A program made the translations under genes and the position numbers. From assembly GCA_039096225.1 (NCBI GenBank), contig JBBPEB010000006.1:186001-250000 (forward strand): 64,000 nt of DNA, in the 5' to 3' direction. Positions 10,435 through 34,575 of the stretch are shown piece by piece. Below the pieces are notes generated by a model. That model was not told the DNA's origin. It ran no database searches and worked only from the letters and a program-made list of their open reading frames with translations. The DNA comes from Blastocystis sp. Blastoise (taxonomy: Eukaryota; Protista; Bigyra: Opalinata). Each line of letters starts with the position of its first letter. The stretch's first letter is position 1.

Positions 10435-10970
10435 TTGATATTTATCTTTGTTTTTTGTTTTTGTTTTTCTTGTTTTTAATTTTTTATTTATTACTTTGTT
10501 TTGTTTTATTGTTTTAATAATAAAAATACTTTTTATTTGATTACACTACTCTTAAAAATGACCTTTTACAATACCAATTGATAAAAGAAATAAATCAATT
10601 GTAATTCCTTTTTTTAATAGGGAAATACTCATCGTTGAGACATGCCTGATACACTGTTGAAATCAGCATAAAATTCCCTATTGAATGGTGTTACCCATAT
10701 ATTGATACGACCATTTTAAGGTGTACGTGACCAATTGCTCAATTGACTTTTGCTTGGTATGTTGGTGAATATATGATATTGAGTAATCAAATTAAAAAAT
10801 AGTCAAATATGTTCTAAATTATATGTAGATTACGAATATGATATCTATTTTTGTTTAAACTCATTTATTCATTATTAAAAACATCATTTCAATTGAAATA
10901 GATATCCTTAATAGATTCAATATATAATATATTATTTATGGAAATTTTATAATTTTTTTTAAATAATATA

Positions 10971-11303: not shown

Positions 11304-11312
11304 TTTTCAGTT

Positions 11313-13112: not shown

Positions 13113-13181
13113 GTTGTTATAAATAAATAAAATAAAAAATTGTTTTGTTAACTAAACAAGTATATATAAATAAAATAAGAT

Positions 13182-14282: not shown

Positions 14283-14331
14283 TTTCAAAAAATTCAAATT
14301 AAGGCGGCAGAATTTAATAAAATATTTGAAT

Positions 14332-16056: not shown

Positions 16057-16129
16057 TTAATAAAAAATGTTATATAACAAAACAAATAATTAAAATATAT
16101 ATATATATAAACTTATATAAAATAAATTT

Positions 16130-17118
16130 TTATTTACGAAATGAATATGGATTATTCCATAACATGTTTTCTTCTTCTTTACCAAATTTATAGTCTTCAA
16201 AATATTTACTTAATTTTTCATATATAATATATTTAACATTTTCAGGGCTTTGTTTTAGATTGATAGAATTTAGTATATATTTAAAATTAGATATATATTC
16301 TCTTTTTTCATATAAAGCTTTATTTTGTTCTGGATCATATCGTATACGATTTGGTTGAGTATATAATAATTCACTTTTTTCAAAATAATTACGTAACTGT
16401 TTTCCATTAATTTCACCATCCGTAAATAAACATGAAGTTACCATATTAACAAAATTATTTACTCTTGTATCTAATACTGTTTGTATATCTGATTGTTGAT
16501 CATTATTATTTTGATTATTATCTTGTTTATCATCTTGTTTGTTATCTTTATTATCAGTATGACCATATTCATTTTCATATCTTAAACTTGGTAATTCATT
16601 ATTATTAAAAAAATCATTATTTTCTTCTTTTTTAACAGTAAAATAATTTAGTAAAGAATTAACATAACCACGATTAGGGGATGTATTTTTGTCATCAACT
16701 CGATTTTGGAATTTTAGATTTGGAGGGATTTTTTCTAGACTATATATCTATATTAAACTAAAATATATAAATACTCTTTGTTTAAAGACCAGTTTTGTTT
16801 AGATGTATAAAGTCCACTATTATTAGCATATATTTTAGCCATAGCTGTAACTCGTTCTTCATCACCTTCTTTTCTAGCTGCATTCATTTGACTAATAAAT
16901 ATATCTTTATCAGTCATTTTTTCTTTTAAATATTTTTCCATATTCATAATTTGACTCATAGAATTTTGTGCATTAGGATCATGAGCAATACGCATTACTG
17001 GTTGTTCATCTTCACATATATAACTATTTGGTAACCATGGATCCCAAGATTGTTGCTTAAAATTACGATTTAAAATATCTTGTAAAGTAATATGTCTATA
17101 TCTACTATTTTGATCCAT
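16130..17118 (-). CDS. Hypothetical 317-aa protein, two exons (17118-16775, 16739-16130)
   Basis: The frame of ORF 16130-16444 is open for 101 codons upstream without an ATG. A 35-nt GTATTT...TATATAG intron (16774-16740) joins it in frame to ORF 16753-17118. Confidence 0.8.
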
Positions 17119-17177
17119 TATATAAAAATAACGAATAATAATTTAAAATAAAAATAAAATTAAAAATAAAATAATAT

Positions 17178-17873
17178 TTAATTATATTTATGTTTAATAA
17201 CTTTATTCTTTCTATTTTTTATTATTTTTTTATTATGTATACCATGACCATGTCGTCTATTATTATCTGGTAATTCATCTATAGGTTCTAATGGTGGCAT
17301 ATTAGTAAAATCGACATTATCAGGCAGGTCATTGTGATTTACTTCTAACAAATTAAAATCATCAAATAATATAGGTAGTTGTAGTCTATGATGATTATTT
17401 TCATCTGCATCATCTCTTGGACTCATATCCATAATAGCTAATGGATTACCTCTACGAACATTATGACGGTTTTCATTTCTTCCAAAAAATCCATCTTCAT
17501 CATTATTAAGTAGATTTCTTCTTTGATTAGCAACAAAATTATTTCTAAAATTTAAAGCTTGACGACCAAAATGAAATATAACAGGAACAGCTGCAGCACC
17601 AAATGCTGTTGCAATATAATAGTCTGGATTTTCTTTAGCATTTTCATAATAATCTTTAACAGTATCATATTTCTTTTGAATCCAATTTCTTTTTTTTTCT
17701 TGTTTACTAGCTAATTCTTTAATATTAATATCTTTATTAAGTGATTCAAAATTTTTAATAGCTCCACCTTCATTATCAAACATATATCCATCAGATGGTT
17801 TAATTCTTATATTTCCACCATATTTAGATGGATCACAATTTTGACTTAAATAGTTATAAGCAATACTAGCCAT
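17178..17873 (-). CDS. 231-aa protein with one hydrophobic segment, putative virion protein
   Basis: Likely start MASIAY at 17873; hydrophobic YYIATAFGAAAVPVIFHFG; GG/GxG motifs and a basic tail. Confidence 0.65.
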   Translation of the reverse strand: MASIAYNYLSQNCDPSKYGGNIRIKPSDGYMFDNEGGAIKNFESLNKDINIKELASKQEKKRNWIQKKYDTVKDYYENAKENPDYYIATAFGAAAVPVIFHFGRQALNFRNNFVANQRRNLLNNDEDGFFGRNENRHNVRRGNPLAIMDMSPRDDADENNHHRLQLPILFDDFNLLEVNHNDLPDNVDFTNMPPLEPIDELPDNNRRHGHGIHNKKIIKNRKNKVIKHKYN

Positions 17874-17891
17874 TTTCTTTTTATTTAATAA

Positions 17892-17926
<35 letters not shown>

Positions 17927-17928
17927 AA

Positions 17929-18975
17929 TTAATTATATTGATATGGAGCACCATGATATCTACGTTTCATAGGATATGGATTAAAATATTTTAATCTTTG
18001 ATCTTGTAGTATTTGTTCATGTAATATTTGCAGAATATCATCTTTAGGTTTATCTTTATCAGGTATTTCTGTACCACGTAGTTGTATATCTTCTTCATTT
18101 GGTAATATTTTTTTTATTCTTTTTGAAAGATAATCATTATTTACATTATTATTTTTCTTATTATCAGAATTAATATTACCACCATTTCCTTCTTCACGTT
18201 TTTCATTTGCTTCATCCATATCAGTCCATTTACGTTTTTTCATCATTTTATAAGCATTTTGTTTTGTACCAACATCAGGATTAGTCCAAGGTATTAAATC
18301 ATCACAACCTTGTTTTAACATAAAAAATTGATGTTTATCTTCTATTAATTCCATATCAGATAATATTTCTTCTAAATTAGGTGGATCTAACTGTAATTTT
18401 TTTAATAATAAACCAGGATCACGTTTTAAAACTTGACTATTAATAAAAAAATGACTTACTTGACTTAATACACTTTGATTTGTAATATCTTTATGGCTTT
18501 GTAAACATATAATAGCATTTTGTTTATAATGTCTACCTTTAGATAATAATGATATCAATAATAGTTTTGTTTCTTTTGATAATGGATATATATCATCAAA
18601 AATAATAAAATTATGTTCTGGTAATTTATATGTAGTTACAAGATCATCAATACTTTTTATTTTTTTAAATTTATCATCAATACTATCATACCATTGATAT
18701 TTTATTTCAGCATGTTCTAATAAATCTTGTAATGATGTATAACATTCATTCATAGAACTAGCTTTAGGACAAAATAAACTTACTTGACGAAATTTATTAT
18801 TTAAATCCATAGAAGCAAGTAAATTAACTGTTAACCATGATTTACCACTAAATGTTCTAGCAATAATTAATATAAATTTTGATTCATAAGTTTTATGATG
18901 TGTTTTACCATATTTAAATGCTAATACACCACAACCACTTTTATCATTTTCTAATAAATTCTTTTTATTAACCAT
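17929..18975 (-). CDS. A32-like (FtsK/HerA) DNA packaging ATPase
   Basis: Walker A variant ARTFSGKS, Walker B FIIFDD, and the KGRHY...IICLQ signature. Confidence 0.92.
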   Translation of the reverse strand: MVNKKNLLENDKSGCGVLAFKYGKTHHKTYESKFILIIARTFSGKSWLTVNLLASMDLNNKFRQVSLFCPKASSMNECYTSLQDLLEHAEIKYQWYDSIDDKFKKIKSIDDLVTTYKLPEHNFIIFDDIYPLSKETKLLLISLLSKGRHYKQNAIICLQSHKDITNQSVLSQVSHFFINSQVLKRDPGLLLKKLQLDPPNLEEILSDMELIEDKHQFFMLKQGCDDLIPWTNPDVGTKQNAYKMMKKRKWTDMDEANEKREEGNGGNINSDNKKNNNVNNDYLSKRIKKILPNEEDIQLRGTEIPDKDKPKDDILQILHEQILQDQRLKYFNPYPMKRRYHGAPYQYN

Positions 18976-19099
18976 TATGTTTTTTTTTAAATAATAAAAT
19001 ATATATATATTTATAAAAGAAATAACAAAACAAAAATTATATTAGTATTATATATTAATGATAAATTATTGATAATATAAAGATATAAATATTATTATT

Positions 19100-19753
19100 T
19101 TAAGAACATGTAAAGAATATTTGTATATTATTATGTGATATATTAACAGGATTATCATTTTGATCACGTACTTCCCATTGTATATCATTATAAAATCCAT
19201 CTATTAAGGGTATAGATATATTACTTAATGACCAATGATTATCATATCCATCTTGAGTATATATTGGAATACTTATTAAATCATTATCTTTATTAATAAT
19301 ACTACTATATATTCTTAATAAATATATTTTACGTATAGTAGAACTAAGTACATAATTATCAGTTAAAAAAACAAAATTATTCATATTAGTAGAACTACCA
19401 GTTGCATCATGAGGTAAATTTAATATTTTAAAAAAATATTCATTTGTAGCTGTTGACCTTAAGAATGTATGACCTATTAAACTTAAACAATTTAAAGAAG
19501 AACTATATTCAAATTCAGGTATAATAGTACATAATTTATTTATGAAATCCATTAAATCATAATTACCACCAGGAAATTGATATGTTTTATTTTGTATATC
19601 AGTTAAAATAAAATCTTTTACATTTTCTAAAGCTATACCATTAACTACAGTAGTTATATGAGATATATTTTTTCCAACTAAATTTAATGAAGGTTCTATA
19701 TGTTCTGTATAGAATGGTCCTTCAATAAAACTACAATGAGATATTGAATTCAT
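19100..19753 (-). CDS. Minor capsid (penton-like) protein
   Basis: FPGGNY, LRIYSSII and IQWEVRDQNDNPVNI resemble Polinton-type penton motifs; lies between the ATPase and MCP. Confidence 0.72.
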   Translation of the reverse strand: MNSISHCSFIEGPFYTEHIEPSLNLVGKNISHITTVVNGIALENVKDFILTDIQNKTYQFPGGNYDLMDFINKLCTIIPEFEYSSSLNCLSLIGHTFLRSTATNEYFFKILNLPHDATGSSTNMNNFVFLTDNYVLSSTIRKIYLLRIYSSIINKDNDLISIPIYTQDGYDNHWSLSNISIPLIDGFYNDIQWEVRDQNDNPVNISHNNIQIFFTCS

Positions 19754-19803
19754 AATTTTTTAAAAATAAAAATATAATAAAATATTAATTTAATAATATT
19801 ATT

Positions 19804-21105
19804 TTAATTCATAGAACCATCTCTAACAAATTTCACAAAAATAAAATTAATAAATATATTTTGTGTTTTAGAAGCACCATTAGTTAACTGATATTTATTA
19901 ATACCAGAAGGAGATGTTTGTATATAATAATTAATTTCACAACCAGATTCTGTATTAACATCAACAACAGAAGCAATAGGAAATAAATATATAGGTTGAT
20001 TATACCATTCATTACCATCTAATACACACATAGGATTTGATTGTGATCTCCATACATTATATAACATACTATTAGGAATAATTTCTAAAGTATATGTATC
20101 AGGTATAAACCTAGTAGCTGTAGGAAATTGTGTTTGTGTAAACATATTCTTTCCACCAATTTGAAAATTAATAGTTGTTGGACAATGAGTATTAACAGGA
20201 ATCATACTATCTTCTGAATCTGTAATATACATTAAACAATAATCAGGAACAAATGTAATACTTCTATTTTTACTGGTTACTAAATCTCCTGTAAAAGATA
20301 ATGATGCAGTATTACCAGTTGAATTTGTTATTGTTTGAGTACCAATTTGTTCAGTAAAAAAACAAATTTCACAATTATTAGGTATACATTTTATTAAATT
20401 TTTTGGATCATTACCCCAGTTAATATCATACATATGTCTAAAATTAATAAATGCTTTTTGAATAACAAATGCTGAAATACCATCTAAATTTGTAGCTATT
20501 TTCTTAATATGATTTAAAACAAATTGAAATGACATTGATTTTATTTTAATAGCACAATCAAATGTAGCTAAACCAGTAATAAGCATTAAAGGAATATATA
20601 TTTTATAAGTTGTAAATGCATCTTTTGAAGTTGTAGCATTTTGTCTCATAGCTTCTATAAGATGTAATTCATCTTTTTTTGCATATAATTTTTCACATGG
20701 AGTATACATAGATTTATCTAATTCAAATTTACTTAATTCTTTAAGTGCTACAAATTTTCTAGCTTTACTACTATTTAATGATGGTTCAGCAAAGTTTATA
20801 GCTACATCTTTTCCAACTGGACTAATATAAGTCATATTAATATTAACTTTATCAACTATAGAATATATATTAGAACTTTGTGTAACAGTAGTATTATTAG
20901 TAGCACTTTTTCTAACACCAAACCATAATTCTAAATAAGAATTACTAAAATCAATATAAGGATTATCAACAGTATTATAACGAAAATCTACATTACATGG
21001 AGCTTCTAATAAACTTTGATCAGTTGTTACAGATACAGTTATAAAATTTTCTGTAATAGTTTGATGATTTACTGCAGGTAAAAAATCTTGTGGAAATCCA
21101 TTCAT
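19804..21105 (-). CDS. Putative double jelly-roll major capsid protein (MCP1)
   Basis: 433 aa, beta-rich, YIDFSNSYLEL and IYIPL motifs of Polinton-like MCPs; gene context. Confidence 0.75.
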   Translation of the reverse strand: MNGFPQDFLPAVNHQTITENFITVSVTTDQSLLEAPCNVDFRYNTVDNPYIDFSNSYLELWFGVRKSATNNTTVTQSSNIYSIVDKVNINMTYISPVGKDVAINFAEPSLNSSKARKFVALKELSKFELDKSMYTPCEKLYAKKDELHLIEAMRQNATTSKDAFTTYKIYIPLMLITGLATFDCAIKIKSMSFQFVLNHIKKIATNLDGISAFVIQKAFINFRHMYDINWGNDPKNLIKCIPNNCEICFFTEQIGTQTITNSTGNTASLSFTGDLVTSKNRSITFVPDYCLMYITDSEDSMIPVNTHCPTTINFQIGGKNMFTQTQFPTATRFIPDTYTLEIIPNSMLYNVWRSQSNPMCVLDGNEWYNQPIYLFPIASVVDVNTESGCEINYYIQTSPSGINKYQLTNGASKTQNIFINFIFVKFVRDGSMN

Positions 21106-21217
21106 TTTTTATTTAAATATTTTATTAAAAAATATATATATAATTAAATATATATTTATTAAATAAAAAAAAAAATAAATAAATAATAATAAAATAAATA
21201 TATTATAAAATATATTA

Positions 21218-22807
21218 TTAAATATCTCTTGAACTTCTAACTGCAACCATATGTATTGTATACATATGAGTTTCATTTATTTCTTCATTAACTTGTCTTT
21301 CATATCCAGCATGTTTAACAATCATATCAGATGATTTTCCTAATTCATCAAAATATGTAGAATCATCTTTAAAAATATATTTTACATTATGAGCATCAAG
21401 AACACAATCAAAATTTAATTCTACACCTTGTTTAGGAATAACATTCATTAAACTTTTACAAGGTATAATATATATAGGATGTTTCATCCAATGATCATAA
21501 TCTAAACTTGTTTCAGGATTTGAATTATCTGCCCATAATGAATATAATGATTTATTTGGACATTGATCATGATATAATTCATGAGTATCACCAACACAAC
21601 CATTTAATAATAAATTACTATAATATTTTTGAGTAGGAAATTCAGTTTGTGGAAACATTTGTACATTACCTACTAAACAACTTAAATATGTTGGCCATAT
21701 ATATGGTGTAGGAATATTACTAACTCTATTAATATCCCATCCTTCAGTAAAATAAAATAATACATATTCTGGTATAAATGGTAATGCTCTATTAATATTA
21801 AATGTATTTCTTTTAATAGGATCATATCTATAATCTAGTTGTATATAGGTAGGTATTGTTTTATATAATTCATCATGATTAAATGTTACATCTTCATAAG
21901 TCATTAAATATAAATTTGCACCTTTTAAAATAAATTTATCTATCCAACTTATATTTAAAGTATTCCATATAGTTTGTTCATTTACTTTATCATATATTTG
22001 ACCTGATGTTTTTGAAGGTATAAATTTTTTTGTATATATAATATCATCATTTTTAAGCATTGATTTAATAGGAGCTGTACGAAATAATATTTTCATATGT
22101 TTTACTAAACTTAAACAATCACCATCAACACCTAAACCAGTTATAAGATATAATGGTATAGCTATTTTTAAAGATTCATTATTATGTCTTACTAAATAAC
22201 GAAATGATGTTAATTCATTTTGTGGACAATATAAAGATTCACCATACATAGATTTTTCTAATTCATATTTTGGAATATCTTTTAATAAAATCATTTTTCT
22301 AGCTCTAGATGAAAATAATGAAGATTCATGATATTTTATAGCACGTTCACTACCATCAGGTAAACCATAAACCATTTCTATATCAGCACTATCAATAAGT
22401 GAATATATATTAACTAACTGTTTTAACTGATCTAATAAATATTTTAATAATTCTTGTTTTGTAAAAAATAATAAATTATTAAATGTATATGTAACACCTA
22501 GACTATCATTCCATACACCATTACCAGGAGTTACTTCCCATAATTTTAACTGAGAAGATGCACCATTTTTATATATAGGAGTAATAAAATTTCCCCAATA
22601 ATTTTCATCTTCTTCAGTACTTGTTAAATGTTCTGGTATCGTATCCTCTTGATCATTTACTATAATAGATAATTCTAAATAACTTTGATTAAAATTAGTA
22701 AAACGACTATCAACATTAGTCCAATCATATTCAAATGCAAATGATTCATTAAGTAAATCAACATCTGATTGAATAGGAATAGTATTATTTATTCTTAATA
22801 ATTTCAT
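21218..22807 (-). CDS. Major capsid protein paralogue (MCP2) with insertions
   Basis: Collinear blocks shared with MCP1: SYLEL, NIYS(I/L), EL(D/E)KSMY, IPLxLITGL, MFxQTxFPT, PIY. Confidence 0.72.
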   Translation of the reverse strand: MKLLRINNTIPIQSDVDLLNESFAFEYDWTNVDSRFTNFNQSYLELSIIVNDQEDTIPEHLTSTEEDENYWGNFITPIYKNGASSQLKLWEVTPGNGVWNDSLGVTYTFNNLLFFTKQELLKYLLDQLKQLVNIYSLIDSADIEMVYGLPDGSERAIKYHESSLFSSRARKMILLKDIPKYELEKSMYGESLYCPQNELTSFRYLVRHNNESLKIAIPLYLITGLGVDGDCLSLVKHMKILFRTAPIKSMLKNDDIIYTKKFIPSKTSGQIYDKVNEQTIWNTLNISWIDKFILKGANLYLMTYEDVTFNHDELYKTIPTYIQLDYRYDPIKRNTFNINRALPFIPEYVLFYFTEGWDINRVSNIPTPYIWPTYLSCLVGNVQMFPQTEFPTQKYYSNLLLNGCVGDTHELYHDQCPNKSLYSLWADNSNPETSLDYDHWMKHPIYIIPCKSLMNVIPKQGVELNFDCVLDAHNVKYIFKDDSTYFDELGKSSDMIVKHAGYERQVNEEINETHMYTIHMVAVRSSRDI

Positions 22808-22878
22808 TTTTTTTAAATATAATAAAAAAATAAATAATTATTTTTTATATTTTAAAATAATAATTTATATATATAAAT

Positions 22879-25200
22879 ATGTTTGAAACTAATGATAATA
22901 TTATTAAAACACAAATTATACCTATTAACACTTTAAGTGTTAATAATGAATTTGATGTACATCTTGATACAAATATTGATATACAAGGTGATACTATAGG
23001 TTTTGTTGATCTTAATTTATGTAGTAATATTAATTCTAATAATGAACAAATACCTATATTTAATACTATTGAACAAGATGAAACATTAGCAATAAATGGT
23101 AGTCTTATTGATATTCCTAAAGGTTATTATGATTTATCTACTTTATTAAATAAAACTGGATTTAAATTAAAACAAGAAGAAAATAATGAAAATAATGAAA
23201 ATATTGCTTTATTATCTTATACTTATGAACAACCTAAAATCTTTGTTGTAGATTCAAATAATAATAAAGTAAAAATATATATTAGTGCAGGAAGAAATCA
23301 ACAATCAACTATACCTAATGGTAAATATACAGAACAAGAATATATAGAAGAAATTGTATGGGGAATGAATAGTTATTGGGGTTCAACGGCATCCTCTCGA
23401 TATTGTGTAGATTGGAGTGAATTTGCTTATAGTATACGATTAGCAAATAGTGGTGAAACTATACATTGGATTAATCATGATGACACAGTAGGTGTCTTTA
23501 GTACTGCACACTCATTTCATTTTAATACATTAGCAAGTAGTATATCAGGTGATTATAATAAATATAATTATATTACATTTAGTAATACTAATGATAAAAC
23601 AATATGTAAACAAGAATGGAAATTTGATAGAGTAGTTAATTTTGATGTTATTGAAGAAGGGAAAAATTCAATATATATGAGTTGTGGTCCTGATGATCCA
23701 AAAATGTTTCTTATTACTATACCTCCTGGAACATATACACAAAAATCATTTTATGAAGAATTCTGCAGACAATCAAGTATAGCATGGCCGGCAATAATAC
23801 AACCTGGTGGTATTGATACACTTGATGACTGGACAGAAGAACATCCATTCTGGTATTTACAAAATGAGGAATTAAATTATGTTTATTTAAGTAATTATGA
23901 CTTAGAACATAGTTTAATGGATTATTATGGTATATTACATAATTTACAAACATTTAAATATTTTAATTCATTTACACCTATGAATATGTGGGATGTACAA
24001 GATGGTCCAATGCCTAAATATACAGATTATCCAGAAGAATTAAAACAATGGGTACCAGGATATACACCTCCAATAAATACTACTATTATTCCTACATATC
24101 ATACATATATAGATGCAAGATTTATTAATTTTGCTACTTGCCCACAGTTACGTGAAATATTAGGATTTACACAAGAATATTATTTAAATGATGATATAAA
24201 AATAAGTGAGAATATAGCTAATATTACTGGGAAAAAATCAGTTTTACAATGTCATTGTAGTATATCTGATACTACTAATAATTCTTTATGTTGTATACCA
24301 ATAAGAGATCCTCTTGGAAATAATCAATTTCATGATGTTTTAAATAGTCATGTTAATGTAGGAACAACACATACAGATTTTTTAAGATTTCGTTTTACTG
24401 ATAATTTAGGAAATGGAATAGCAATAGCAGATAATACAAAATTACTTGGTTTTTTAGAATTAAAAGATACTGTTGATTGTTTAGAACAACCACAAACATT
24501 AAAAAATTTAAATTTATCATGTTTAACTCAAGATATCGATTTTGAAACTGATTTTAAAGATTTGAATTTAATAAATAAAACTATAAAAGATATTATTATA
24601 CAAAATTATAGTCCTACAACTACTGGTCAAATAAATTCATTATTTATAAATAATTTTCAAAATCCTGTTTGTATATTTAATACAGATCAAAGTTTTCTCT
24701 ATTATAATAATGTAAATTCTCCAATATCAGTAAATCATTTTATAAAATTATTATTTAAGTATCCATTTAAAGGAAATATTATTTGTAATATATGTGAACC
24801 TATATCTATTCCAAGATTATTTTTAGATTGGGATGAAATCTATTGTGATTTTACAAATACAAATAAATTAAGTTTTAATATTCATAAAATATTAAGATAT
24901 AGTCATGCATATTTAACAAATATATTAGTATTATCTACAGATATTAAAGAAACTGATTCTAGTGTTGTTACTTTAAATTGTTTTCCTAATAAATATCAAA
25001 ATATTATTCATATGATATTTCCAGGGGAATTACCTTATTTTTATAATTCTGATCAAAAATATGATTGTATAAAACAATATATGAAACCAAATACGTATGT
25101 ATGTAATCGCAGTATGTTGTCATTACTACCAAGCATTACGTCATTTGAAATAAGCTGTGACGTGAAGTGTGTCATACTCTTAAAGATCCAATATAATTAA
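22879..25200 (+). CDS. Extended penton-like / spike protein (773 aa)
   Basis: Three IPxGxY motifs (IPKGYY, IPNGKY, IPPGTY), LREILGF, LQCHCSI and LRFRFTDNLGNGI mirror the short penton, with long insertions. Confidence 0.62.
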   Translation: MFETNDNIIKTQIIPINTLSVNNEFDVHLDTNIDIQGDTIGFVDLNLCSNINSNNEQIPIFNTIEQDETLAINGSLIDIPKGYYDLSTLLNKTGFKLKQEENNENNENIALLSYTYEQPKIFVVDSNNNKVKIYISAGRNQQSTIPNGKYTEQEYIEEIVWGMNSYWGSTASSRYCVDWSEFAYSIRLANSGETIHWINHDDTVGVFSTAHSFHFNTLASSISGDYNKYNYITFSNTNDKTICKQEWKFDRVVNFDVIEEGKNSIYMSCGPDDPKMFLITIPPGTYTQKSFYEEFCRQSSIAWPAIIQPGGIDTLDDWTEEHPFWYLQNEELNYVYLSNYDLEHSLMDYYGILHNLQTFKYFNSFTPMNMWDVQDGPMPKYTDYPEELKQWVPGYTPPINTTIIPTYHTYIDARFINFATCPQLREILGFTQEYYLNDDIKISENIANITGKKSVLQCHCSISDTTNNSLCCIPIRDPLGNNQFHDVLNSHVNVGTTHTDFLRFRFTDNLGNGIAIADNTKLLGFLELKDTVDCLEQPQTLKNLNLSCLTQDIDFETDFKDLNLINKTIKDIIIQNYSPTTTGQINSLFINNFQNPVCIFNTDQSFLYYNNVNSPISVNHFIKLLFKYPFKGNIICNICEPISIPRLFLDWDEIYCDFTNTNKLSFNIHKILRYSHAYLTNILVLSTDIKETDSSVVTLNCFPNKYQNIIHMIFPGELPYFYNSDQKYDCIKQYMKPNTYVCNRSMLSLLPSITSFEISCDVKCVILLKIQYN

Positions 25201-25324
25201 AAATAATAGTTTCTCTTTTTAAAGATATTCGTTTCTCTATTTCTCTATTTTTTTAATTTTATTTTATAAATCATTTTTATTTTATTATTTATTATTTTTT
25301 AAATAATTCTGAATTCTACTGAAA

Positions 25325-25957
25325 ATGTCTGAAGATTTGAATAATTTAGTTTACTCTAAACTCCTTAAAGAAAATAATTTAAGTAAAAAACTGGAATTAT
25401 TGAAATGGAATATGAAAGAGCCTTATAATAATAATATTGATGATTATATATTTAATATCCGTCAAACAGTGGACTATATAAAGGAATTGAATACTTATTT
25501 ATTTGATACTCTTTATATGTATGATAATATCTTGAATGATGAAAATGCTAAGAAAGCTGCCCCTGAACATTTAGCTCTTATTGATTATTCTGCTGATAAT
25601 AGAAAACTTCATAAATTTATAGTAAAACAAATTCATGAAGAATTTTCTGATATAGAAAGTAATCTTCAATTTATTGAATTTTCAATTCATGGTATGTATG
25701 ATCCTGAAGCATTATTTAAACAAATGAAAAGAATCCGTAAAGAAAAATATGATGAATGTGAAAAATTTGTAAAATATAATATATCTAAGAATGGTATTGA
25801 TACTCCACCAAAGACTCCTACTCATGAAGCTAAAAGAACTAAGATTGAACCTAGTCAACCTGAACGTAATTTAACTCCTTTAGTTACTTTCTCATCTCTT
25901 AATCTTGACTGTATATCTGAATCTGAAGATACTACAACTAATTCTGATAAAGAATGA
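25325..25957 (+). CDS. Hypothetical 210-aa helical protein
   Basis: Clean ATG ORF within the element; no recognised motif. Confidence 0.7.
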   Translation: MSEDLNNLVYSKLLKENNLSKKLELLKWNMKEPYNNNIDDYIFNIRQTVDYIKELNTYLFDTLYMYDNILNDENAKKAAPEHLALIDYSADNRKLHKFIVKQIHEEFSDIESNLQFIEFSIHGMYDPEALFKQMKRIRKEKYDECEKFVKYNISKNGIDTPPKTPTHEAKRTKIEPSQPERNLTPLVTFSSLNLDCISESEDTTTNSDKE

Positions 25958-26112
25958 ATTTATATTTATTATTTAATTTTATTTTTATTTTTTTATTTTT
26001 ATATTTCTTATTGTATTAAAAATTATTATTAATCATTTTATTTGTTGTTTAGTTATTATTATTTTTTTTAAATTAAAACAAAACACATATATATTATATA
26101 TAAAAAAAATAA

Positions 26113-26532
26113 TTAATTATTATTATTATTAAAAAAAGAATTTACTGACATACAATCATTTTGATTCATACGATTATTATTTATAAAGGGTGGCTGTGTT
26201 AAATCATTATCTATAGAAGATATATGTGGTTGTGAAGATAGAATAGAATTATTATTATTATAAATATTTTTAGAATATATTTTTTGTATTTCCTTATCTA
26301 TAATATTTTGAATTTCTTTACGACATTGATTATCATCTATAAATTCACTGGCACGACGTAAACCATTTAATTCATTTTTTGTAAAATTTGCATTCTTATG
26401 AAAATCTATAAATCTACAACATAAACTAAATATACGATTTCCATAGGACCTTATAGCATCTTTCTTTATACCACGTAATTCTTCAGCAAAATTTGCATAA
26501 GTCATATTATGTATATTAATAGGTTGTGACAT
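26113..26532 (-). CDS. Hypothetical 139-aa protein
   Basis: Clean ATG ORF downstream of the protease; no recognised motif. Confidence 0.6.
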   Translation of the reverse strand: MSQPINIHNMTYANFAEELRGIKKDAIRSYGNRIFSLCCRFIDFHKNANFTKNELNGLRRASEFIDDNQCRKEIQNIIDKEIQKIYSKNIYNNNNSILSSQPHISSIDNDLTQPPFINNNRMNQNDCMSVNSFFNNNNN

Positions 26533-26620
26533 TTTTATTACTATATAGAAAAATAAAATAATTATGTCAATAAAGAAAACTTATTTTTGTTTAATATATT
26601 CAGTTCACATCAGAATTTTT

Positions 26621-27205
26621 TTAACAAGGCATTATATTACTATTACTTAATAAATATAATAAAGAATAATAAAAACAACCATTAGCATTTTCAGATGTGC
26701 TTTGATGTTGAATAGGACTGAATACTATGTTATGACTATTTACAAAATTTCTACTAAAATTTGGTTTATTCCCAAGACTACTATAATGTTCTATTTTCTT
26801 TGGAGTATAGATAATAGCTTCAAAATGTCCAAAGTTAGGATCTGTATTACTTTGATGAAATATCATATTATATTTTGTTCTATCATTATCTATATTATTT
26901 TCAAATTCTTCATAACTATTATAATAATTATATCCATTTGGATTTGAATGATTTAACATATTCATTGTTGATTTTGCTCGGCTACAAGCTACAGCACTTG
27001 TTGGCTTATTTAAATAACCATAATTATAAATTTGTTTTATTAAATTTTTAGGAATTAATGTATATTGACTAATTTTTTGAGAAAAATCTTCGGGAGATCT
27101 AGGAGTTACTTTTCTATCAGAATCACTTATAATAGGATTATCACAATCTAAGTGTTCTTGTATAAGTTTCTCATTCTTACTTTCTTCTAAACCTCCCCCT
27201 CTCAG
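26621..27205 (-). CDS. Adenain/Ulp1-like maturation cysteine protease, probably the -1 frameshift extension of the 468-aa ORF
   Basis: GHFEAII (His), EHYSSLG, QHQ...NGCFYYSLLYL (Gln, Cys). The frame is open to 27214, 83 codons upstream of the first ATG (26965). Confidence 0.8.
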   Translation of the reverse strand: MRGGGLEESKNEKLIQEHLDCDNPIISDSDRKVTPRSPEDFSQKISQYTLIPKNLIKQIYNYGYLNKPTSAVACSRAKSTMNMLNHSNPNGYNYYNSYEEFENNIDNDRTKYNMIFHQSNTDPNFGHFEAIIYTPKKIEHYSSLGNKPNFSRNFVNSHNIVFSPIQHQSTSENANGCFYYSLLYLLSNSNIMPC

Positions 27206-27211
27206 TTTTTT
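27092..27211 (-). promoter_or_regulatory. Predicted -1 programmed ribosomal frameshift signal
   Basis: A_AAA_AAC (27211-27205) in the correct phase directly before TGA, 7-nt spacer, stem GGGAGGUUUAG (27197-27187) with CUAGAUCUCCC (27102-27092). Confidence 0.75.
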
Positions 27212-28608
27212 GATTTATTCCCATGTTTATTTCGTTTACATTGTTGCATATATTCATAAAATGCTTTACCTTTTAATTTTTGTTTACTGCCAGCAGCACG
27301 TAATACACCACTAGCTTTATAGGGTTTATCATCTATTTGTTTAATATCTTTTGTTTTTTGAGAATTATCACTTATTAAATTATCATTTTGATTTATTTGT
27401 TGAGAATTTGCTGCTTTCTGCTTTTGATAATTTTCTAAATTTTTCCTTCTTTCTTTTAATTCTTCTTTATGATAATCACCTTCTACTTCCATTTCTTGTT
27501 TCTTAATTTCATTTTCTTCTTTCATTGTATCCCATGCTTCTTTTAATTTACCTGGTTGTGCATAATACATTATTTTAGAAGGTATTTCTTTTACCATATT
27601 CCATATATTTGGTAAATTATTTATTACACCCATGACCTCATCTGCTACTGCACCACCACGCTTTAATCTTAAATGTTCACCATCGGGAGATTCATTAAAA
27701 TCTATATATTTACGTAATTTAGACATATTTAATGGTTTTAAGCCTGCTGCACGCATTCCTTTACGGTTATCTACCATAAATTGTAAAGCATTAGCTATTT
27801 GTGGTGGAATTAATTTCCCTTTTTTATTTTTTGTTTTAAAGAATTTCCTTACAGATTTATCATCTAAAGAACCACCTCTAGAAGACTCCATCGCAGTAAT
27901 AACTCCTGATAAATTATTTTCTAATAATGTACCACCAAAGGTTTTATTTAATTTTCTATGAATTCCATTACCTTGATTACTATTGGCTATCTTCTTTATT
28001 ATATTTAATGAACCATTTACTATACCACCTTGTGAATCATTATTATCACCAGTTAACATATTACCTATATGTTCTACTGATTTACGTTTTGTAGCTTTAC
28101 CTATAGCTTTCATTGTATGACCTAAAGTTTTTGTAATTATACCACCACCTTTATTATTTTGTAATTTATTTAATTCACGACTATTATAAGCTAATCCTTT
28201 ACCTTTTATACCTATACGATTACGTGCTTTGAAATTAGTAGGATTAATCTGTGGATCATCACTAGTATGAGCTTCTTCTTGATTATCTACAGTATCATCA
28301 TATCGCCTTTTATTTATTACACCTTTTCCTACAGGTTTTGCTTGTATTAAAGCTCCTCCTGCACCTGTATTAATACCAAATTCTTTATCACGATTAACAT
28401 AAGAATTTATTTTATTTTCTATTTGATTTTTCTTTTTTAAATTTGATACTAAAAAAGATGAATTTGGACCTACTTCAAATATTAATGGATTATATTCATC
28501 TAATGTTTTTAATGGTTGAGGTTTATAAGGTCTATTTTCTTTACCAACTGCTATTTTATTTATACCAAATGCACCAGGGCTTGGCATACCTAATATACAA
28601 GTTTCCAT
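27202..28608 (-). CDS. Basic 468-aa putative core polyprotein with repeated GG/GxG motifs
   Basis: GAGGA, VGKGV, KGKGL, KGGGI, QGGI, QGNGI, FGGT, RGGS and RGGA motifs; Lys-rich; abuts the protease frame. Confidence 0.65.
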   Translation of the reverse strand: METCILGMPSPGAFGINKIAVGKENRPYKPQPLKTLDEYNPLIFEVGPNSSFLVSNLKKKNQIENKINSYVNRDKEFGINTGAGGALIQAKPVGKGVINKRRYDDTVDNQEEAHTSDDPQINPTNFKARNRIGIKGKGLAYNSRELNKLQNNKGGGIITKTLGHTMKAIGKATKRKSVEHIGNMLTGDNNDSQGGIVNGSLNIIKKIANSNQGNGIHRKLNKTFGGTLLENNLSGVITAMESSRGGSLDDKSVRKFFKTKNKKGKLIPPQIANALQFMVDNRKGMRAAGLKPLNMSKLRKYIDFNESPDGEHLRLKRGGAVADEVMGVINNLPNIWNMVKEIPSKIMYYAQPGKLKEAWDTMKEENEIKKQEMEVEGDYHKEELKERRKNLENYQKQKAANSQQINQNDNLISDNSQKTKDIKQIDDKPYKASGVLRAAGSKQKLKGKAFYEYMQQCKRNKHGNKSKN

Positions 28609-28677
28609 TATTAATAAAATATATTTTTTATAACAAAACTATTCTTTTAATAATAAATAAAATATAAATAAATAATG

Positions 28678-29517
28678 TTAATAATTTATATGTAAAATAT
28701 ATTCATCATATAATGCACCTTTACTTCTTACATATGTATTTTGACGATAAAATGATAATACTGAAGTATATTGTATATCTTTATCATCAAAAGATTTTTT
28801 CATTTCATTACTACATGATATATATACACATATAGCATCTTTCATTTCTTTCACAGTTTCTAAAAATTCATTATTTGAAAATTTATCTTTACTATAACGA
28901 TCAAATGTATTCATATAGGGTGGATCCATATAATATATACCCTTAGGATATTTCTTTATTATATCACGATAATCATCATTTAATATAGTTACATTATTAT
29001 AATTTAATAAAGATGATATTTGTAAAATATTTTCTTTATTAAATATATTTTTATTTCTTTTATATCCCCATGGAGTATTAAATTCATCTTTTTGATTTAC
29101 AGAATATATACCACAAAAACATCGTTTATTTAAAGCAATAAAGTAAGCACAACGCATCAAAGTATTTGTACAAGTATTAAATATTTTACGTAATTCATAA
29201 TAATTATCAGAAGTATCTTCTACATCATTTAATTTTTCTAATTCAACTATTAATTTTATTGGATAATCACGAATATATTTCCAACAATTTATTAAATCAG
29301 TATTAGTATCACTAATTACATATTTACGATCAGTTCTATCTTGATAATCTTGCATCATTAAATTTAAGAATACATGACCACTACCAATAAAAGGTTCAAT
29401 ATACATTGGATTTTCATTATTATTTCTAGGTACTGACTTTAAAATATCTGCTATTTGACCAGCTACTCTACGTTTACTACCAGGCCAAATAACAAAGGAT
29501 GAATACTGTTTTGACAT
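28678..29517 (-). CDS. D12-class N6-adenine DNA methyltransferase (Dam-like)
   Basis: WPGSK, YIEPFIGSGHV, SDTNTDLINCW, catalytic YMDPPY. Confidence 0.93.
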   Translation of the reverse strand: MSKQYSSFVIWPGSKRRVAGQIADILKSVPRNNNENPMYIEPFIGSGHVFLNLMMQDYQDRTDRKYVISDTNTDLINCWKYIRDYPIKLIVELEKLNDVEDTSDNYYELRKIFNTCTNTLMRCAYFIALNKRCFCGIYSVNQKDEFNTPWGYKRNKNIFNKENILQISSLLNYNNVTILNDDYRDIIKKYPKGIYYMDPPYMNTFDRYSKDKFSNNEFLETVKEMKDAICVYISCSNEMKKSFDDKDIQYTSVLSFYRQNTYVRSKGALYDEYILHINY

Positions 29518-29614
29518 ATAGAAATAATAATATTTTAAAACAAAACAAATATTTAAAAAAAATACATTAATAGAATAAATAAGAAATATATATAATAATA
29601 AAATAAAATAATTT

Positions 29615-30355
29615 TTAAGGTTTTATAGAACATACAGGCATAGTACTATAATGTTGATCACCTCTTTCAATAATCATCATTTGAGTTGCATATAAGTTAA
29701 AGAAATAACGAGAATTGCCATTGACTATCTTATAATTAACACTTACAGAAAAAAGCACTTTAATAGTACTACCAGGAGTTAAGAATGTTTCATTAAATTT
29801 CATAACAGAGTATTTTTCATTTCGAAAACAAGTTAATAAATTCAGTTCACAATCATAAGTATTCAAACGGACAAAACTATCTTTTAAAGGAACATTGATA
29901 GTCATAACCTTAGTAGGAGTACTCTTTAAAGGAGAATCTATATAATAAAGTAAGTTTGAAGGCCTATTAACAGATAAACAAGAACAATTATCAGAAGAAC
30001 AAGTAATACAATTGGAGTTGTCAAGAGAATAAGGATACTTCTTCATTACAAAATCCATATAGACAGCACGACTCTCAGCAGTAGGGAATAAAGACATATA
30101 TACAAAATCATCAATTGACTTAACAAGACAATTGAAGTCTTCGTTATCCATAAATAAAGTTAACTTCGAAGAAAATCCATCAGAGAAATATTTCAAAGCA
30201 AAAGGGGCAATTAAGGCGGGAGTTTGAATAAATAATCTTTTTTCTTTATAATAAACATCATACCTTTCAGAAATATTATCAATTGGGTCTAACTTAACAA
30301 GGGATAACTTCGTAGCATCAAAAGAATCTTCAGGGCGGACAATAACACTAGACAT
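29615..30355 (-). CDS. Putative OB-fold single-stranded DNA-binding protein (NCLDV-type)
   Basis: Likely start MSSVIV at 30355; LFIQTP..APF and L..IDDFV motifs; divergent from the primase-helicase. Confidence 0.65.
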   Translation of the reverse strand: MSSVIVRPEDSFDATKLSLVKLDPIDNISERYDVYYKEKRLFIQTPALIAPFALKYFSDGFSSKLTLFMDNEDFNCLVKSIDDFVYMSLFPTAESRAVYMDFVMKKYPYSLDNSNCITCSSDNCSCLSVNRPSNLLYYIDSPLKSTPTKVMTINVPLKDSFVRLNTYDCELNLLTCFRNEKYSVMKFNETFLTPGSTIKVLFSVSVNYKIVNGNSRYFFNLYATQMMIIERGDQHYSTMPVCSIKP

Positions 30356-30521
30356 CTTCAAAAAAATTGTAAAATTCAAATAAATAAATAAATAAAATTT
30401 ATATAAATATTGCAATTGCAAAAAATAGTTGAACTGAATACTAAAAAAATAATAGTTTCCACTAAAATTTGAATTTAGCCAATCATATTTCAATATCTTT
30501 TGACAAATAGCTAAGTCATAG

Positions 30522-30800
30522 TGACGGAGTTTGGAGCAATATTCAAAACCACCAATTTTGGATCTTTCCGGAATGACGACGTTTGGAGCAATTTTCAAAA
30601 CCATTCATTTCGAATCTTTCCGGAATGACAACGTTTGAAACAATACTAAAAAACACATATTTTATTTTTCCTGATATGACGTCGTTTGGAGCAAATTCAA
30701 AACCACTCATTTCGAATCTTTTCGGAATGACAACGTTGAAGCAATATTCAAAACCATTTATTCTATTTTTTCCTGATATGACGAACTTTTAAACAATATT
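30522..30800. repeat. Degenerate tandem array of ~51-52-bp units (five full plus one partial)
   Basis: Units start at 30529, 30581, 30633, 30684 and 30735; consensus roughly GTTTGGAGCAATATTCAAAACCA...TTCCGGAATGACRAC. Confidence 0.9.
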
Positions 30801-30862
30801 TAATTTGAATCTTTTAAAAATAATATTTAATTTATTTGAATTTTTTAAATATTTTTTTGAAA

Positions 30863-33800
30863 ATGGCTGAAATTCAAAATCAAACAATTTGTAAGTATTC
30901 TACCTTCAATCAAGAAAATACTATGGATAACAGGGCTGCTACAGTTGTTCAAAACCCTTCGAAATTCTATGATTATATGTATAAATATTATTTAGATAGT
31001 AAACAACCTGGTGGAGTCCCTGAACTTAAGCATTATATTGATGTTGTGCCTACTACTGTTGAGAAAGCTTATCGTCGACTATGGTTTGATCTTGATTGTT
31101 GCCGTGAAGAAAATGAGTTCTCCGATCTATCTGATAATAATATACATATACTGATTGAACGTATTAGTCAATTGTTCTTAAAGATATATAATCCAAATAA
31201 TATGAATATTATTACTACGAAGAAGGTTGTCAATAGAAAAGAAAAAGCAAATGGTGTCTTCTATAGTTGGGGTATGCACGTCTTCACCAATTGGTTTATC
31301 AAAACAGATTTATTAACTTATATGTATAATGAAATTATTGAAGATGATATGATTAAATCTATTTGTAATACTTTACATGTGAACTCTAATGAATTTATTG
31401 ATGGAGCCGTAATTGCAAATAAGAATCGAAATAATGGTGTAATGATGCTTGGATGTTCGAAGAATAATACTCCGTCTACATATGATTTCTACGATATGTA
31501 TGAATCAAATTCTTGGCAAAAAATTAATTTTGAAAATTCTGATATAATCAAAAATGCTTATTATTCTACTCTACTTAATTATAATTCTCCTAATGATGTT
31601 TTTGTATGCTACAGTAATTATGTTTTATTTTCAGAACTATTAAATAAAAACAATGTAAAAAGATACCTTCATAAAATATTATCGTTTGATAAAGATACTA
31701 TTAATAGTTTTACTACTGCATATTCTATTACTAAAGCTTATAAAGATATTAACCCTGCTACTATGGATAATAACTCTGAAGAAGTAGATAATTACGAATT
31801 TAATTTATTAGAGCAAATACTCACACTTATTTCTGAAATAGATAATGGATATTATTTTGAATCTCATAATGAATGGTATAAGCTTATACGAGCTACAAAT
31901 AATTATAATAACTCTGAAGATACTTTGAATCTTTTTATGAATATAAGTAACTCCTGTTCTCACACTCGTAGCTTACAGAAATTCAAATCTACTTGGAATA
32001 ATACGTCTAGCTATGAATCTTATAATTATTTTAAAGATTCTTCGTATCTTTTCTTTATCTTACAAAAACACAATAAACTACCAATAGATTGTAAGAATGA
32101 TTATATCTTTTGTCATGTTATGAAATCTATATCTAGACATAATGAAGTTACTTCTCAAGCATTCGTGGAATTATTCAAAACTTTCTGCTTTAATGATCGT
32201 GTTATGGTTGAAGATATATCTAAAAAATTCGTAAAGATATATGCTTATGATGAATTCAACGTTTTAAGAAATATTCACCATTCTTATGATGTTAATTTCT
32301 TTGAATCAGAAATTACTTCTTTTGCTAATACAATTGCCGAGAACTTTCAACAAGCAAAACAATTTAAAAAAGAACTTAAGAGTCATATATTCTCTCTGAA
32401 TAAGCTTCAAAATGCCTCTAAAACAAATGAAAAAAACTATAAGGAATGGCTAGCTAGATATCAGAAAACTTACGCTATATCTTATGAAACTTTCAGAGAT
32501 ATTCATCTCAAACATAGAGAAAATGTTATTTATACAAATGTCGGTTTTGTTGTTCCGCTAACAAATGCCCTTGAACCAACCGTTGTAGATGATTGGACAG
32601 CTGAATTCCCTGGAGCACAATATCACCTTTTACATTCTCCTTCTTATGATGTAATTCCCTATGAAAAAGAAGATATTATCTTTGAAGAAATGATTATTAA
32701 TGCACAAATTGTCCCTAAAACAAAACATGTACCTGAAGACTTTGATGCTATAAAACAATTTCAAAGACATGTATTACGTTATTGTGGAGGCGACGGTGAT
32801 TACGCAGATGCTATGATGCAAATCATTTGTCAATCACTCTATTGTTGTTCCGATCACACTTGGTGTTATATCCTATATGGCACTTCTGGAGCCAATGGAA
32901 AAACTATAACTACTGATATTATGAAAAATATTCTAGGTAATAATCAATGTATTCCCGTGAATCCTGATAACTTTGAAGAAACTTCAGCTTCTCCATTTCT
33001 ACTTAATTTACATAATAAAACTATGTATTATATGAATGAACTTAGTGAACATTCAGGAGGGTTTAAGAAATCGGTAAATCCCCTAGAATCTCGTATATTC
33101 AAGGAATTATGCGAAAAGAAATCAGACGCTACCGCTCGTCTTCTTCACTCTAATGTTATTCAAACCTATAATTATACGGGAATTCTCTTTGTTACCTCTA
33201 ATATTCAACCTACTGCCGTAAATGCCGGACCTTTAGAACGTAGAGTCGTCTTCTTACCGTCACTTTGCCGCTATTTACCACCTTCCTCAGTAACTCTCTA
33301 TGAACCTAAAGGAGATTATTTAACCAAGAGAAAACGATATAATACAGAGGAAGAAATCCAAATAGCCGTGAATCAAGGTCTTCTAGCTAAAAAGAAAAAT
33401 CACTATCCAATGGATCCTAATGTATCTTTTCTGTTTAAAAAACATACTAATGCTATATTCTCTTGGTTAATCTTCCATTATCTTGAACGTAGCTTACGTC
33501 TTAATATGGATATGTTACAAGGAATTCAAGCAATTGCCACGTGCAAAGAAGATTTCTTAGAAAAGTGTTCTTCTGGATATAATATGAAAGATTTTGTCAA
33601 GGCTAAATTACAAATAGATCCTTTCTTTATTAACGTCGTATCTTTAGAAGATATCTTTATCGCTTATAAAGATTTTAATAAAGATGCGAAGTTCACTATC
33701 CAAACAAATCTAGATAAATTTTTCAAACAATTGTGTACTGCATTTCTGGCAAACTCCGAATTCTACGAAATTGATATGTTGGATTACCGTAGAACTCATC

Positions 33801-34027
33801 AAAGCGAATACTATAAGGATCACACTGCTATAGGTATTAAAGGTATTCTTATTGATAAATCCTATAATTATAGTGTTAATATGAAAAAATTCACGGAAGA
33901 TTACCGTATAAGTACCTCTGTAGTGAATATTGTCGGCTTTGACGCTAATTTATTCTCCAAAAATGTCAAAAAATTAAAAATATTTTATGAAAATAAAGAG
34001 TATTATGCTCCTTATTTTGGTTATTAA
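30863..34027 (+). CDS. AEP primase-polymerase fused to a D5-like SF3 helicase
   Basis: LWFDLD and GMHVF primase motifs, PriCT-like EWYKL, Walker A GTSGANGKT, Walker B YYMNE, motif C FVTSN, RRV. First ATG is at 30863. Confidence 0.92.
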   Translation: MAEIQNQTICKYSTFNQENTMDNRAATVVQNPSKFYDYMYKYYLDSKQPGGVPELKHYIDVVPTTVEKAYRRLWFDLDCCREENEFSDLSDNNIHILIERISQLFLKIYNPNNMNIITTKKVVNRKEKANGVFYSWGMHVFTNWFIKTDLLTYMYNEIIEDDMIKSICNTLHVNSNEFIDGAVIANKNRNNGVMMLGCSKNNTPSTYDFYDMYESNSWQKINFENSDIIKNAYYSTLLNYNSPNDVFVCYSNYVLFSELLNKNNVKRYLHKILSFDKDTINSFTTAYSITKAYKDINPATMDNNSEEVDNYEFNLLEQILTLISEIDNGYYFESHNEWYKLIRATNNYNNSEDTLNLFMNISNSCSHTRSLQKFKSTWNNTSSYESYNYFKDSSYLFFILQKHNKLPIDCKNDYIFCHVMKSISRHNEVTSQAFVELFKTFCFNDRVMVEDISKKFVKIYAYDEFNVLRNIHHSYDVNFFESEITSFANTIAENFQQAKQFKKELKSHIFSLNKLQNASKTNEKNYKEWLARYQKTYAISYETFRDIHLKHRENVIYTNVGFVVPLTNALEPTVVDDWTAEFPGAQYHLLHSPSYDVIPYEKEDIIFEEMIINAQIVPKTKHVPEDFDAIKQFQRHVLRYCGGDGDYADAMMQIICQSLYCCSDHTWCYILYGTSGANGKTITTDIMKNILGNNQCIPVNPDNFEETSASPFLLNLHNKTMYYMNELSEHSGGFKKSVNPLESRIFKELCEKKSDATARLLHSNVIQTYNYTGILFVTSNIQPTAVNAGPLERRVVFLPSLCRYLPPSSVTLYEPKGDYLTKRKRYNTEEEIQIAVNQGLLAKKKNHYPMDPNVSFLFKKHTNAIFSWLIFHYLERSLRLNMDMLQGIQAIATCKEDFLEKCSSGYNMKDFVKAKLQIDPFFINVVSLEDIFIAYKDFNKDAKFTIQTNLDKFFKQLCTAFLANSEFYEIDMLDYRRTHQSEYYKDHTAIGIKGILIDKSYNYSVNMKKFTEDYRISTSVVNIVGFDANLFSKNVKKLKIFYENKEYYAPYFGY

Positions 34028-34089
34028 TTTTTTTTTATTTTTATTTAATTTGTTTGGTTTAAAAGAAAAAATAATAAAAATATAAACTG

Positions 34090-34174
34090 AGACCTGGCAT
34101 ATCAGGTGGATACGACGATATGTTGAAAAATATACATATAAGGGTTCTATCCCCGGTTATGTCGGGTCTTTTTT
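34090..34174 (+). ncRNA. Candidate Pol III-type small structured RNA
   Basis: 12-bp terminal stem AGACCTGGCATA/TATGTCGGGTCT with two G-U pairs, inner ATATGT/ACATAT stem, B-box-like GGTTCTATCC, T6 run at the 3' end. Confidence 0.5.
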
Positions 34175-34217
34175 ATTTATTTAAAATAATCCATAATAAA
34201 AATAACAAAGAAAAAAT

Positions 34218-34575
34218 AGAGCCAGTTTTGAATTTTTTTTCCCCAAACTCTTTAGATATAAGGGGCTAAATGACTATATGACTATATGGATTTCATATAG
34301 TCATTTATCAAAAATATATTTTATAATATTAGATTTTTAGAAATCGATGACGCACACCCCAAATCGACCAATCAAATCACTTTAAAATTACTTTTTTGAT
34401 TATTTTTAAAACTACCCTTACTTTTATCACTTCCCCATGTTTCGGAAGTTTTAATAATACTTCAGCCGAGATCTCCAGCACTCGTCTATTACCCCTGATC
34501 GGAAAATCAGTATGATTTTCCGATACAGGGGTAATATCGAGTGAAATACTGGAGATCGAAGAGCGGAAGTATTAT
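34218..34575 (-). repeat. Right terminal inverted repeat (358 bp), including the hairpin at 34451-34575
   Basis: Reverse complement of 9197-9553. Confidence 0.97.

Follow-up and report, generated by a model that had tools for sequence, protein, structure and literature searches.

In the gag-pro arrangement of MMTV and the deltaretroviruses, the structural precursor occupies frame 0 and the maturation protease occupies the -1 frame, and the gag-pro slip site of MMTV and HTLV is A_AAA_AAC. The accessible text of PMC8310308 gives an efficiency of 23% for the MMTV gag-pro frameshift and describes frameshifting as known from few eukaryotic DNA viruses. For adintoviruses and adabscoviruses, the available part of PMC11071296 mentions slippery Penton ORFs predicted with KnotInFrame, as well as Hexon-Adenain ("Hexain") fusions, in which a predicted -1 slippage links an adenain-like protease to a protein of the virion within the Polinton-like consortium, an arrangement that has its counterpart at the locus described here. 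Two further groups share other features with the present element: the YR/primase-helicase Polinton-like viruses (PLVs), which, according to the accessible part of PMC10120064, measure 15-30 kb and carry TIRs, an MCP, an ATPase, a YR, a Pri-Hel, an MTase, and a protease, and the Blastocystis MELD virus (PMC8502044, available in part; BK012044), likewise a linear dsDNA virus of intermediate size, found in Blastocystis datasets.

In this study, we analyzed a stretch of 64,000 nucleotides of Blastocystis sp. Blastoise (contig JBBPEB010000006.1; hereafter, the window), in which a protease ORF lies out of frame directly behind the ORF of a putative core protein. A preliminary description of the same DNA had proposed that the two are joined by a gag-pro-like -1 ribosomal frameshift. 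As argued below from the layout of the reading frames and from comparison with relatives, the junction is probably a real and functional frameshift site.

Host element and gene content

The junction is located in an endogenous Polinton-like insertion that is bordered on its flanks by host genes rich in introns, and the following features could be assigned in it.

9197..34575, no strand assigned: endogenous Polinton-like element of 25.4 kb, ending on both sides in TIRs of 349 nt
13182..14282, minus strand: putative tyrosine recombinase (phrog_216 integrase, E 0.0011, a weak match)
17929..18975, minus strand: packaging-type P-loop ATPase (phrog_2666, E 1.5e-9)
19804..21105, minus strand: candidate for the major capsid protein, 433 aa (viral clusters at 0.96-0.97 in the Atlas)
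21218-22807, minus strand: second capsid paralog-like ORF, 529 aa, adjacent to the 433-aa ORF
28678..29517, minus strand: Dam-like adenine methyltransferase (PF02086, E 2e-37)
30863..34027, plus strand: primase-helicase (phrog_1156, E 5e-14)

The TIR arms (9197-9545 and 34227-34575) are 99% complementary. A TIR-bounded insertion of 15-30 kb with a primase-helicase and a YR-like gene, the YR match being weak, has the traits of Polinton-like elements, and these traits bear out the earlier assignment. Because no Pfam match to protein-primed PolB or to rve integrase was found among the 19 element ORFs scanned, the element is not regarded as a Polinton in the strict sense, and its gene content resembles that of a YR/primase-helicase PLV. 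Copies of the element exist on four contigs, over which near-identical proteins labelled Blastocystis sp. Blastoise are spread, and a profile search of 1.84 billion representatives (five hits) revealed no close match of the element proteins outside their own family.

The capsid-like ORFs gave no HMM match in Pfam or PHROGs; one Atlas viral cluster near the 433-aa ORF has Capsid_N in 12% of its members, and the AlphaFold model of the putative capsid (pLDDT 36) is too poor for use. The tandem capsid-like ORFs of 433 and 529 aa share a 50-nt stretch of similarity (20925-20974 and 22669-22718), and the pair at 19804-22807 suggests that the gene of the major capsid protein was duplicated. The ORF of 773 aa at 22879-25200 is a candidate for a minor capsid protein in extended form, and two basic ORFs with GG or GxG motifs, at 14332-16056 and 17178-17873, may be further protease substrates. 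A repeat with a period of about 51 nt (at least four copies, 30531-30803) is situated between the 329-aa ORF and the helicase and is a candidate origin or regulatory array; a pattern search of the element for a perfect three-unit heat-shock array returned none. In the host sequence, an uninterrupted ORF of 3789 aa occupies 38983-50352 of a genome that is otherwise rich in introns.

Frame geometry at the core-protease junction

Across the junction the minus strand reads ...AAA TCA AAA AAC TGA GAG GGG GAG GTT TAG..., and the two ORFs meet there as follows.

27202..28608, minus strand: putative core/structural precursor, 468 aa, basic and Gly-rich, ending on TGA
27205..27211, minus strand: slippery heptamer A_AAA_AAC, in the phase of frame 0, immediately 5' of the stop
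27198..27204, minus strand: 7-nt spacer UGAGAGG, containing the 0-frame stop
26621..27205, minus strand: -1 frame ORF of 194 codons, putative clan CE (adenain-like) cysteine protease, with LRGG/G at its start (final slash, proposed cleavage position)

The preliminary description had reported that the 468-aa ORF ends on TCA AAA AAC TGA with A_AAA_AAC in phase, and both were read directly on the minus strand, the stop being at 27204-27202. Stops in the -1 frame occur at 27217-27215 and not again until 26623; the frame is therefore open from 27214 and overlaps frame 0 by 13 nt (27214-27202), within which any shift must fall. The first Met of the -1 frame is codon 84 counted from 27214 (ATG 26965), so that the long opening without ATG was also found as described. 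Translation across the shift yields LRGGGL as the residues that follow it and a fusion of 468 + 194 = 662 aa, in agreement with the transframe L-R-G-G-G and the approximate size given before.

Heptamers of the form X_XXY_YYZ occur in phase at 78 of the 7127 codons of the 19 element ORFs, a density from which the chance of finding one in a 13-nt overlap is approximately 3%. Among these 78, the present site stands alone in having more than 19 open -1 codons behind it, and of the 19 ORFs only that of 468 aa ends on an in-phase heptamer. Stop codons are TAA in 17 of the 19 ORFs, with TGA confined to the 468-aa and 210-aa ORFs. No AT-rich intergenic gap separates the core and protease ORFs, and gaps of 49-308 nt are present at 15 of the 17 other gene junctions.

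The "core" label of the 468-aa ORF is putative and derives only from its basic composition (83 K/R vs 50 D/E) and its repeated xGG motifs. Seven GG sites were observed in this ORF where 4.1 are expected. They do not fit the strict (M/I/L)XGG/X consensus, to which only the transframe LRGG/G conforms in the 15 element ORFs checked.

The putative protease in the -1 frame

The preliminary description had placed a maturation-type protease in the -1 frame, and the downstream ORF is indeed assignable to the clan CE (adenain-like) proteases by its His/Gln/Cys residues, its Atlas neighbors, and weak fold matches. H130 (codon 26827), Q171 (26704), and C180 (26677) are invariant in all seven protease-bearing rows of the alignment. 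In the ESM Atlas, the homolog P0011 lies at 0.96 to clusters bearing Peptidase_C5, and Peptidase_C5/C48 clusters lie at 0.94-0.96. Matches to CE-protease folds were many, each of them weak (Z 3-4; protease model pLDDT 57), and the best viral Foldseek match of this pLDDT-57 model, the protease of the MELD virus, was weak as well (E 0.037). Neither the protease nor the core ORF had a match in Pfam, PHROGs, or PDB sequence searches. At the presumed third catalytic position (26780-26782, S145 of P0001), every homolog has Ser (YSSLG). The typical CE motif at this position is YFDSxG, and Ser at the presumed position of the catalytic acid, which was placed by motif comparison, appears unusual.

Judging from the alignment, the N-terminal 80 residues, which precede any ATG, are conserved. 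Residues 46-80 are identical at 19-25 of 35 positions in all six homologs compared and are conserved as strongly as the catalytic part, and residues 6-45 are identical at 14-18 of 40 positions in five of the six, P0051 having 1 of 40. A contig from the sequencing run X1 covers 26972-27005 (22 differences, of which 11 are among those listed), and the five differences listed for this interval are synonymous in the -1 frame and non-synonymous in both others; P0032 has a cluster of non-synonymous differences at residues 49-59. At the other end of the ORF, four gene models splice the protease into the next ORF of 139 aa (26113-26620), while the homologs stop where the protease of the window stops; the splice is likely an annotation artefact.

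Predicted downstream stem

The sequence that follows the spacer is predicted to form a stem from these segments.

27187..27197, minus strand: 5' arm of the stem, including the codon GGG, which is rare in the element (4% of Gly codons)
27092..27102, minus strand: 3' arm of the stem, including the rare codon CCC (5% of Pro codons)
27078..27084, minus strand: UUUCUCA, predicted to pair with the spacer

Beginning 7 nt after the heptamer, GGGAGGUUUAG (27197-27187) pairs with CUAGAUCUCCC (27102-27092) over 11 bp, including two G-U pairs, with pair probabilities of 0.99-1.0, and the stem proposed in the preliminary description was thus reproduced by prediction. It is a long-range helix with an 84-nt loop, and its closing pairs are made by the rare codons GGG and CCC. 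The inner stems AGAAU/AUUCU and ACUUAUA/UAUAAGU, which had been placed inside it, do exist, but the arrangement that contains them (-20.6 kcal/mol) is less stable than the minimum (-30.2 kcal/mol) and was rejected as the favored fold.

The energy of the native fold ranks third among 934 coding windows. Folds as stable as the native one arose in 5 of 200 dinucleotide shuffles (z -2.15) and in 9 of 1000 synonymous shuffles, and 31 of these 1000 synonymous shuffles yield a stem of at least 11 bp. As many as 285 of the 1000 synonymous shuffles reach 10 bp, and the amino acids therefore dictate much of the stem. The z of the stem is -2.8, little below the lowest value among 33 control windows (-2.6), and the significance of the predicted structure is modest. 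A more speculative pairing is that of UUUCUCA with UGAGAAA in the loop (27173-27167), which could form a pseudoknot stem when the ribosome covers the spacer. The sole substitution in the structured stretch, D40N of P0028, falls in an unpaired bulge, a single case whose position was deduced.

Relatives with fused or separate genes

The N-terminal part of P0075 (E 7e-19) and that of P0051 (E 1e-22) are homologs of the 468-aa ORF. P0075 (617 aa, 30 member sequences) is homologous from its N terminus and continues straight into the protease in one frame; core and protease are also in one frame in P0025 and P0004, and the junctions of these three in-frame fusions carry GG or GxG. Because relatives encode core and protease in one frame, the core-protease fusion appears to be biologically real in this family, and the fusion product postulated in the preliminary description has its equivalent in P0075, P0025, and P0004. 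These three metagenome calls are presumably intron-free. P0051 has three copies, which also bear the label Blastocystis sp. Blastoise, and its gene model, a core-protease fusion of 533 aa, could hide an intron. It belongs, with P0067 and P0068, to a second PLV family with that label; the 533-aa model lacks the CDNPII segment, and one of the three copies of this family has a locus tag only a few genes from that of a first-family copy, on a contig of 752,296 nt.

Other relatives are split. In P0052, P0071, and P0076, the core ORF terminates at the homologous joint with A-G-F as its last residues, an ending that can be reconciled with a heptamer of the form G_GGU_UUY, into which 8-10% of dipeptides would fit by chance. 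The stand-alone protease clusters P0005, P0012, and P0050 have Met exactly after the position of GGG, which suggests that the proteases have their own start there. The DNA of the distant relatives was not found in viral, metagenome, or genome contigs, phages, or plasmids.

Alternative explanations of the frame offset

The offset lies in an A run, relatives such as P0075 are in frame, and the core gene of one copy is annotated in two pieces (P0031 and P0029), as might be expected of a non-functional break, caused either by a homopolymer error of assembly or by the loss of one base that inactivated the protease and spread among the copies. However, an X1 contig, about 90% identical to the window, bridges 27155-27420 with no gaps. 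It has 27 differences, of which the 21 listed all fall at 27289-27373, where they cause nine amino-acid changes that match copy type P0032, and the heptamer has neither a gap nor a change among the differences listed. The contig, being gapless and of the P0032 type, thus represents a different copy type and a different assembly with the same frame offset; it argues against a homopolymer error, and the possibility of seven T instead of the T6 run, raised in the preliminary description, is disfavored by this other copy. It has a depth of 2.3 with an unrecorded platform, may share its source with the window, and is not a distant relative, and since X1 is only guessed to be RNA, the unspliced contig is uninformative on splicing or expression. 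The same offset is implied in the four annotated copies, the differences downstream are biased to synonymous ones, and the protease ORF and the other genes of the element are intact between TIRs that are 99% identical; we consider a non-functional break quite improbable. The core gene annotated as P0031 and P0029 combines sequence of two copy types, which suggests that integrated copies have undergone recombination or gene conversion. Where copies are such mosaics, identity at the site is not necessarily the result of selection, and the diverged copy P0029 has other identical stretches equally long as that at the site. All four annotated copies bridge the site by an intron, as is expected if each is out of frame, and taken at face value these models would mean that an intron (e.g. 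27269-27187, 27239-27148, or 27239-27199) removes the stop and joins the frames. Many GT-AG pairs restore the frame in this intron-rich host, and length does not exclude the candidates because tortoise-clade Blastocystis has longer, variable introns, as stated in the accessible part of PMC10690189. The copies are nevertheless near-identical and were modelled with three different introns, to which their junction residues map, an inconsistency that would be typical, if indirect, evidence of gene-predictor output at a frame break. The candidates are also G-rich and without a T tract (27-32% G+C, 4-5 T in the last 23 nt), unlike nine host introns (1-17% G+C, 10-16 T in the last 23 nt), these nine being the correctly bounded ones after 5 of 14 hand-placed introns were left out for being one base off. 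In addition, two candidates delete conserved residues (FYEYMQ, or GGGLEESKNEKLIQEHL), and the models in question extend the protease by a splice into the next ORF, past the point where the homologs end. The intron at 27269-27187, considered as an alternative in the preliminary description, is disfavored by its G+C and T content, and we give splicing at this site in general little credence.

The protease could also be produced separately, by stop-restart or a non-AUG start at CUGA or from its own transcript near ATG 26965. CUG at 27205-27203 comes after six A and overlaps the stop UGA, and a UGGGA near the stop, beginning at 27223, 18 nt upstream of the CUG, resembles a core motif of TURBS; yet this pentamer occurs 16 times in the element, and at 27223 it is presumably closer to the stop than is usual for TURBS. 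The Met at the start of the stand-alone proteases P0005, P0012, and P0050 would suit separate production, as would Met 84, which is conserved and precedes the greater part of the CE fold match (model residues 73-197). Against a start at Met 84, the 70 nt 5' of ATG 26965 have 31% G+C, compared with 0-21% before 16 other ATGs (11% or less in 13 of them), and a protein begun there would omit the conserved YGYLNKPT. On balance, separate production seems unlikely. A product nearly the same as the ribosomal one, the in-frame KSKK-LRGGG, would arise if RNA polymerase slipped on A6 and added one A in some transcripts. The A run is a homopolymer, and A6-A7 is the length of the slippage motifs of the potyvirus and Ebola polymerases. 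A6 is, however, short for slippage by a cellular RNA polymerase, and a heptamer that ends in AAC, with a stem 7 nt further on, is consistent with slippage by the ribosome. Ambiguity between ribosomal and transcriptional slippage is discussed in the accessible text of PMC8310308; in the present case, we regard the transcriptional variant as highly improbable.

Proposed mechanism

The reading that we favor, with a probability of roughly 0.7, is a programmed -1 ribosomal frameshift at A_AAA_AAC, through which the protease is likely joined to the 468-aa putative core precursor in a 662-aa fusion (...KSKN-LRGGGL...). The frame geometry with its in-phase heptamer, the conservation of the 80 residues ahead of any ATG, and the in-frame fusion of relatives were observed directly; the steps that we infer are slippage, ratio, packaging, and cleavage at LRGG/G. 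Most ribosomes would terminate at UGA and produce the core precursor alone, while a minority, delayed by the downstream stem, would slip on A_AAA_AAC into the -1 frame and continue into the protease. The core part of the fusion would then lead to co-packaging of the protease, which would be freed at LRGG/G and subsequently cut other xGG sites. A low ratio of protease to substrate would thereby be fixed, as in retroviral gag-pro. Such a low ratio makes sense because few copies suffice for adenovirus, which, according to the available part of PMC4246237, carries out more than 2000 cleavages at (M/I/L)XGG/X with approximately 7-50 packaged protease molecules. Dosing and packaging of the maturation protease in PLVs are not addressed in the literature searched.

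If the frameshift is real, a retrovirus-style gag-pro solution operates in a dsDNA virus. The predicted signal fits into a 130-nt cassette, and the relatives whose core and protease share one frame provide a natural control. The arrangement would also name a probable protease substrate and a core protein for a group with uncharacterized cores, and gene models with inconsistent introns probably conceal such signals in protist genomes. A broader idea, which we put forward tentatively and consider rather doubtful, is that the Gag-Pro-like junction of gut-protist PLVs toggles among in-frame fusion, -1 frameshift, and separate genes, with at least two lineages using different heptamers at the same joint. 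These heptamers may be A_AAA_AAC here and G_GGU_UUY in the P0076 lineage. If the junction does toggle, programmed frameshifting would be a recurrent device for protease dosage in eukaryotic dsDNA viruses.

Comparison with known systems

The preliminary description knew of no such case in PLVs or Polintons. No report of a core-protease frameshift in PLVs was found in our search of openly accessible papers, and none is contained in the accessible parts of PMC8502044, PMC10120064, 10.64898/2026.06.19.733378, and 10.1101/2024.03.23.586382. The claim of novelty stands to that extent but has to be narrowed, since frameshift-type hexon-adenain fusions have already been predicted in adintoviruses (PMC11071296, available in part), and more Hexain-type cases are possible. 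In Hexain, the partner of the protease is the major capsid protein, whereas a putative core protein takes this place here; and the accessible text of PMC11071296 treats the fusion in one sentence, without a comparative test, whereas here the product is supported by in-frame relatives.

Compared with the YR/primase-helicase PLVs as described in the accessible part of PMC10120064, the present element has no close protein match outside its own family, and its protease is tied to the core precursor. The MELD virus is set apart by its description, which, in the available part of PMC8502044, includes PolB and an adintovirus-like integrase, in contrast with the YR-like gene and primase-helicase of the present element. 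The locus differs from MMTV gag-pro in belonging to a dsDNA Polinton-like virus and in having a clan CE cysteine protease in place of an aspartic retropepsin; the predicted long-range stem stands where MMTV has a compact pseudoknot, and the frameshift was read from sequence alone. With the adenovirus protease AVP, the protease shares its clan, CE, and LRGG/G matches the (M/I/L)XGG/X specificity given in the accessible part of PMC4246237. AVP, however, is encoded by a separate gene, whereas the protease of the present element lies out of frame behind the core ORF.
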